Positions 56,088-56,158 of a stretch of DNA of 64,000 nt are shown in pieces. Origin of the DNA: Eledone cirrhosa. Lineage: Eukaryota. The translations under genes and the position numbers were made by a program. Where the stretch lies: contig OZ024745.1 in the NCBI GenBank assembly GCA_964016885.1, positions 134,168,001 to 134,232,000 on the forward strand. The letters are read 5' to 3'. The notes beneath the pieces are model-generated. The model had not been told where the DNA came from and did no database searches. It worked only from the letters and a program-made list of their open reading frames with translations. The stretch's first letter is position 1. Every line of letters begins with the position of its first letter.

Positions 56088-56158
56088 GCACTGGGGCGAG
56101 ATATCTTGTCTTTAATGCGTAGAAATATCCAAGACCCCCAGCAGACAACTGATGAAGG
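56088..56158 (+). ncRNA. Structured RNA motif B: pseudoknotted, permuted hammerhead-like element
   Basis: GCA-CTGGGG-CGAGATAT-C-TTGTCTT-TAATGCGTA-GAAA-TATC-CAAGAC-CCCCAG-CAGACAA-CTGATGA-AGG. Covaries with 12430-12500. Confidence 0.6.

Follow-up and report, generated by a model that had tools for sequence, protein, structure and literature searches.

What kind of RNA is formed by a short motif that carries every core element of a hammerhead ribozyme in an unusual order, and which element carries it? The question is raised by a stretch of 64,000 nucleotides of the Eledone cirrhosa genome (assembly GCA_964016885.1, contig OZ024745.1, positions 134,168,001 to 134,232,000 of the forward strand), hereafter the window, in which an earlier note had described two 71-nt pseudoknots. 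Both motifs lie where that note had placed them, at 56088-56158 and, on the minus strand, at 12430-12500, and are identical at 42 of 71 positions without gaps; they are called copy B and copy A below, after their repeat subfamilies. The proposal that they represent an atypically permuted hammerhead was borne out by core letters in hammerhead register, blocks in the order S-G-C and six covarying helices. The reading that we favour, with a probability of about 0.68, is that the motif is a hammerhead fold of S-G-C order with its stem II split by a four-way junction, that it is carried by thousands of non-coding repeats probably derived from Naiad Penelope-like elements, and that it probably cuts itself after position 56105, which would free monomers.

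Structure of the motif in the window

The 71-nt box originally drawn around the motif proved too short, the full motif spanning about 105 nt, with some 30 nt upstream that supply three more helices. The parts of both copies, in hammerhead numbering where this applies, are as follows.

55700..56238, plus strand: non-coding repeat copy of subfamily B, about 540 nt, between two (TA)n tracts, with the motif near its 3' end
56058..56063, plus strand: helix IIa, 5' strand; partner 56157-56162, just after CUGAUGA-A
56064..56084, plus strand: hairpin H of the putative four-way junction, with one mismatch private to copy B
56086..56090, plus strand: helix IIb, 5' strand; partner 56116-56120, the strand before GAAA (WGCG in the earlier note)
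56091..56096, plus strand: distal extension of stem III (originally helix 4-9); partner 56136-56141
56097..56099, plus strand: unbulged strand (C-G-A) of a kink-turn pattern; the bulged strand, 56130-56135, has a 3-nt bulge, G-A and C
56100..56105, plus strand: stem III, 5' strand, with U16.1 and H17 (AUC triplet); partner 56125-56129
56106..56111, plus strand: stem I, 5' strand; partner 56143-56148; then a 4-nt linker, 56112-56115, to helix IIb
56121..56125, plus strand: position 11.1 (A in subfamily B) and core G12-A13-A14-A15.1, from the sequence
56149..56162, plus strand: core C3-U4-G5-A6-U7-G8-A9, position 10.1 (A, 56156) and helix IIa, 3' strand, from the sequence
12428..12529, minus strand: second full motif, subfamily A, by comparison with 29 other subfamily A copies
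12414..12642, minus strand: 5'-truncated repeat copy of subfamily A, about 230 nt, between (TA)n tracts

Hammerhead geometry would place the cut after 56105, at the end of the NUH triplet, in agreement with the earlier note. The likeness of the subfamily B repeat to other copies extends about 384 nt upstream of the motif, with 73-84% identity over 470-560 nt to its six longest matches. Copy A differs from the 29 other subfamily A copies by three private changes (positions 12, 13 and 34), which remove the kink-turn A, the outer stem III pair and a possible 10.1-11.1 pair.

Covariation of the six helices

The three helices first proposed from the two window copies all hold: 4-9/49-54 has changed on both sides in 5 of 6 pairs and 19-24/56-61 in 3 of 6, and 14-17/38-41 is paired in both copies. 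Examination of the flanks of 60 copies revealed a conserved upstream hairpin (H) and, likewise upstream, two strands whose partners are the bases that follow CUGAUGA-N (IIa) and the WGCGN strand in front of GAAA (IIb). From about 200 motif copies, 24 real copies were hand-picked across subfamilies and compared with the resulting six-helix model. Covariation extends to these homologues, with compensatory change in 22 of 34 pairs and in all six helices; 86.2% of 813 cells are paired and 140 cells have changed on both sides, against 32-46% paired in slid controls in which partners were moved by 1-3 columns. Shuffling gave 0 of 500, a significance that is overstated, as shuffles ignore the relatedness of the subfamilies. 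For this reason, and because the structure was derived from the same sequences, it is the changes per helix that constitute the real evidence. A measure of further pair types was not above shuffles (352 of 500).

Both-sided change affects all six pairs in stem I (94.3% of cells paired) and all six in the stem III extension (92.4%), two of the five pairs of stem III (93.3%) and of helix IIb (81.7%), two of the four columns tested in helix IIa (86.5%), and four of the eight pairs of hairpin H, whose figure of 74% paired is lowered because its register shifts by one base in older subfamilies. The core and stems I and III stand in exact hammerhead register. A15.1-U16.1 is a U-A pair in 23 of 24 rows, G12-A13-A14 and H17 occupy hammerhead positions, and the CUGANGA core directly follows stem I, intact in 23 of 30 copies chosen regardless of the core. 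Judged from these sequences, IIa, H and IIb make up with the core a predicted four-way junction that replaces stem II. Folding of copy B with nested pairs only favours a local hairpin that hides the cut site.

Kink-turns are defined by a bulge of 3 nt that precedes tandem G.A and A.G pairs between two helices. This pattern is present between stem III and its extension in copy B and in most subfamilies, the tandem columns being non-Watson-Crick in most rows of the 24-copy alignment, and it is lost in copy A. Helix 4-9/49-54 is an extension of stem III through this pattern, a relation that the earlier note had missed. Most subfamilies have C at position 3b or G at 3n, letters linked to the folding of kink-turns in metal ions (PMC4382518), and this fit to the ion-folding rule was counted in favour of the split-hammerhead reading. 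One subfamily (L125, L132 and L148) has Watson-Crick pairs in place of the G.A pairs, keeps the 3-nt bulge and shows a nearly perfect four-way junction.

Position of stem II

The motif had been described as lacking a normal stem II. This is correct for a direct stem II, since more than one such pair was absent in all nine subfamilies tested. What had been missed is that the two strands of stem II are still present and pair with an upstream segment. Of 24 rows, 16, several young subfamilies among them, could form one 10.1-11.1 pair (A-U, G-U, G-C or U-A), G10.1-C11.1 being possible in subfamily GGCCT. This pair covaries weakly: 5 of 500 shuffles reach its score, yet slid controls pair nearly as often. 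Subfamily B has A at both 10.1 and 11.1, which are pairable in 3 of 24 copies, and in subfamily GATCT they are pairable in 0 of 25. The upstream strand offers 11.1 a possible partner in older subfamilies (11 of 23 rows overall). Because A stands on all three sides in subfamily B (10.1, 11.1 and the upstream strand), the copy in the window is perhaps a weaker cutter than the best members of the family. Among the validated forms compared, the accessible portions of the literature contained no hammerhead core without the 10.1-11.1 pair. Subfamilies without any 11.1 pair have been amplified.

Copy number and carrier repeats

A 24-place pattern over positions 15-38 matched 7,020 + 6,973 = 13,993 times in the 3.0-Gb genome and its reversed control 1 + 1 times, so the motif is not due to chance. 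A looser pattern for divergent forms, excluding the main subfamilies, gave 878 matches against 43 in its control, and DNA searches of the genome with each window copy gave 2,260 and 1,809 candidates.

The carrier is, as had been supposed, TA-inserted and derived from a retroelement: copies are found in (TA)n tracts, 5'-truncated, and are single, in tandem or arranged as inverted pairs. They are non-coding and pyrimidine-rich. Same-strand spacing was 611-641 nt in 14 of 28 pairs, and tandem units are mostly 620-641 nt long with one motif each; the longest ATG frame in the unit at locus L047 has 62 codons. Tandem heterodimers of two different subfamilies (L004, 1509-2042; L045, 1215-1581) suggest template switching. 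At a duplicated locus (L215 and L216, about 3900-4400), a Penelope-type element is joined head to head to a motif repeat with no TA between them, a junction that may point to insertion by the same machinery; this element has its own type I hammerhead, of which the first 12 letters from C3 are those of the subfamily A core and IIa strand.

The window also holds other repeats. Long near-perfect inverted repeats at 55411-55492, 56707-56828, 37510-37669 and 56240-56640, which give below-threshold scores with microRNA models, are probably 5'-inverted insertions of other TA-targeting repeats. Other retrotransposon reading-frame fragments lie at 24037-26239, 33691-35268 and 61967-63602 on the plus strand and at 14175-15487 on the minus strand; three of the four have RVT_1 by Pfam and one has PHD fingers.

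Relationship to Naiad and HERO-like elements

Naiads are described as Penelope-like elements with (TA)n targets and without canonical hammerheads, sometimes with a 'half core' and the other half on either side, and their consensus entries bear the labels 'HHR_half_core' or 'HHR_core' (Craig et al. 2021, PMC8557442). Among the supplement entries of that paper that we viewed, ten show by eye the S-G-C order together with a split stem II. They are Naiad_Obim and Naiad_Ovul, a group of three nearly identical entries near the headers Naiad_Aacu and Naiad_Anas, and five without headers in view, one of which has a short stem I and no visible IIa. By eye, a C precedes GAAA in 10 of 10, its partner being a G in the upstream strand; the resulting G-C11.1 pair is identical to the canonical G10.1-C11.1. 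Naiad_Obim and Naiad_Ovul share with the repeats the 23-nt spacing from GAAA to CUGAUGA, the kink-turn pattern, the hairpin loop and the letters of IIa, again by eye. In six other entries viewed, CUGANGA precedes GAAA and loop II is long and apparently pseudoknotted, so that Naiads show a further hammerhead layout outside the standard ones; no motif was seen by eye in Naiad_Omin.

Naiads and the repeats both have (TA)n targets and tandem and inverted copies, a pattern of TA targets and tandems that is common to other Penelope-like clades and hence not diagnostic. They differ in that the repeats in E. cirrhosa are non-coding; the Naiad paper, in its accessible portions, reports no canonical hammerhead and does not describe the split fold (PMC8557442). 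Derivation of the repeats from Naiads is likely, because their IIa and H are nearer to the cephalopod Naiad version and their inverted pairs are Penelope-like.

No reading frame with an N-terminal GIY-YIG and a C-terminal reverse transcriptase was found beside the copies examined, and no Naiad frame joined to the motif in 34 genomic stretches. Two reverse-transcriptase motif patterns run over the whole genome gave 0 hits and 1 unrelated, non-Naiad hit, with no intact Naiad reverse transcriptase; a short Naiad_Ovul-like pattern gave 2 decayed remnants, neither with a reading frame. Inverted pairs of 3.6 kb were considered as the autonomous partner and rejected, as they are the duplicated locus with the unrelated Penelope-type element. 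The elements with a C-terminal endonuclease in the window were likewise set aside, as they carry ordinary type I hammerheads. Ordinary type I motifs of other Penelope-like elements are found in the window at 42095 (minus), 39613 (minus) / 39681 (plus), 13451 (minus) and possibly 37947 (minus), two of them just behind C-terminal endonuclease-like frames (42364-42870, minus, and 13660-14130, minus, the latter GIY-YIG by Pfam).

Spacing-only matches in viral contigs fitted the stems in 0 of 123 cases, and 1 of 118 metagenomic matches passed the same test. This one (L272) directly follows the C terminus of a reading frame that we take to be of the HERO type. A search with its C-terminal peptide gave 29 matches in the E. 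cirrhosa genome, and in most of the 20 loci taken from these (L468-L487), whose reading-frame ends presumably are also of the HERO type, a decayed form of the split, kink-turned layout comes immediately after the end of the frame. The module thus appears common to two unrelated retroelement classes, the Penelope-like Naiads and the HERO-like elements. Because the same fold follows HERO-like frames, the case for descent from Naiads is built on how alike the sequences are and on the pattern of insertion.

Copy ends around the predicted cut

Raw counts of 5' breaks at positions 15-19 amounted to 408 copies, compared with 294 and 299 in two control windows. Among the first 100 breaks in the cut window, 37 are TATATA junctions, and 38 of the remaining 63 retain 0-1 native letters. 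The excess can be accounted for by microhomology at TATA. Because about 38 of the first 100 rows in one control window belong to another subfamily by a hand tally, the true excess may be about twofold. Breaks on the 3' side fall on the cut in only 54 matches, of which many are small insertions, and priming of a cut 3' end on (TA)n was rejected on these grounds. Insertions neither start nor end at the cut, and copy ends give cleavage no positive support; many copies have their 3' end a short way past the motif. The anole Penelope hammerhead cleaves only with protein, its catalytic mutants insert in vitro and no RNA-seq reads end at its cut (PMC11167929). Copy ends away from the cut are consistent with tandem or circular templates being copied from a start point further downstream, as in that element.

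Discussion

From the observed core letters, six covarying helices, copy number, tandem and inverted arrangement and TA targets, a mechanism can be outlined. Helix IIb would stack on the A9.G12 pair as a substitute for stem II and would begin, in autonomous elements, with a G-C11.1 pair, so that the upstream strand would supply the G usual at 10.1. IIa and H would serve as a side arm that anchors the 3' end anew. Bent back at the kink-turn, stem III would have its far end joined to those of stems I and IIb, in replacement of the loop I-loop II contact. In hammerheads, G12 acts as the base and the 2'-OH of G8 as the acid, and this usual chemistry is assumed for the split motif. Cleavage after 56105 would release monomers from tandem transcripts; these may circularise, and their reverse transcription into (TA)n sites, by a Penelope-type enzyme provided in trans, would begin downstream of the ribozyme rather than at the cut.

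The same fold could also serve mainly as a handle by which the reverse transcriptase of the element takes hold of the RNA and begins to copy it, with cutting that is slow, protein-dependent or dispensable. The behaviour of the anole hammerhead agrees with this, as do copy ends that avoid the cut, many 3' ends being shortly downstream of the motif, and the amplification of subfamilies without the 11.1 pair. A pure handle, however, need not hold NUH, G12 and G8 in register, whereas the catalytic letters are kept from one subfamily to the next, in Naiads from several phyla and in HERO-like elements, even as the sequences of the helices change; a handle as the main function appears to us rather improbable, and handle and cutting roles are not mutually exclusive.

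Activity as a dimer only, with strands swapped between tandem copies, had been raised in the earlier note. The copies are often in tandem and minimal metazoan Penelope hammerheads do act as dimers, but known dimers compensate for a stem III of 1-2 bp (PMC4209133), and the motif has 5 pairs there plus a 6-bp extension. Every helix closes within a single copy, a dimer is therefore unnecessary, and we hold this option to be very unlikely. That the motif is a chance likeness or a dead relic without selected structure is barely conceivable: genomic copies decay, CUGANGA is not intact in 7 of the 30 unbiased copies and both window copies bear private changes, yet compensatory changes between subfamilies affect all six helices, and the parser that accepts the motif passed almost none of the viral and metagenomic spacing-only matches.

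Returning to the split hammerhead, its broader meaning would be as follows, and we lean slightly towards it. The motif would be an active hammerhead in which the CUGAUGA block is freed from stem II, a distant strand delivering the G of the 10.1-11.1 pair through the four-way junction and a kink-turn caging the three arms. It would supply the ribozyme that many Naiads had seemed to lack, give non-circularly permuted ribozymes their first known home in a genome and in an animal, and constitute a mobile module common to the Naiad and HERO-like classes, with retrozyme-like parasites of its own in more than 14,000 copies. If this is true, non-circularly permuted ribozymes are no longer confined to environmental RNA but occur in animal genomes in high copy number, and the assumption that CUGAnGA and the stem II strand are inseparable is broken; hammerhead descriptors miss the motif because they make that assumption. 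It would also offer a testable answer to the apparent absence of hammerheads in Naiads, which bears on whether ribozyme cleavage is general in Penelope-type retrotransposition, and the natural variants at 10.1/11.1 and in the kink-turn would constitute a ready-made mutational series.

Comparison with known ribozymes

In Rfam, neither copy matched a hammerhead and nothing in the window reached gathering score, a canonical type I motif there being missed as well; among the matches listed (the best 150 of 518), nearly all were microRNA models on simple repeats. Compared by helix order, the pistol, twister and HDV layouts do not fit the motif. A search of the open-access literature found no description of a split, kink-turned fold, and the accessible portions of PMC10162972 and PMC13725137 hold no precedent for a split stem II.

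Non-LTR retrozymes resemble the repeats in their non-coding tandem units with one hammerhead each and in their Penelope-like link (bioRxiv 10.64898/2026.07.22.740005; PMC4209133). In contrast to the S-G-C form in units of about 540-640 nt found here, their hammerhead is of type I and often dimer-dependent. In the PK hammerhead (Zhan et al. 2024, PMC11300833), helix II is likewise replaced by a helix with a distant strand, and one stem II pair is enough; it keeps G10.1-C11.1 in a circularly permuted order, without a four-way junction or a kink-turn.

The nearest published form by block order is type SGC, and the motif would presumably work as such RNAs do. The earlier note held that the order of the motif matches none of types I, II and III, and while the atypical permutation stands, NUH, GAAA, CUGAUGA is the published type-SGC order (PMC10085705). 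As that type has been named and experimentally validated, the block order alone is not new. Type SGC comprises HRIMA-1 and variants, five RNAs of which cleaved in vitro at 0.007-0.19 per min; all of its 583 sequences are metatranscriptomic, with none found in genomes of known organisms according to the accessible text, which assumes that the block of CUGAnGA and the stem II strand cannot be interrupted (Eckert et al. 2023, PMC10085705). Shared with the motif are the S-G-C order, all core letters, stems I and III, a linker of 3-4 nt between stem I and the strand in front of GAAA and a topology of several pseudoknots. In the published alignment of type SGC, however, the bases that follow CUGAUGA and those that precede GAAA are direct partners, whereas here each of these two strands pairs with an upstream segment; and the I-II interaction helix lies 3' of the core, whereas its counterpart here is the kink-turned extension of stem III, whose partner is 5'. 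Because two defining features of type SGC, an intact block C (CUGANGA with the stem II strand within 1-2 nt) and a 3' I-II partner, are absent, the variant is set apart from plain type SGC; it can be read as a type SGC hammerhead broken at the A9/10.1 step.
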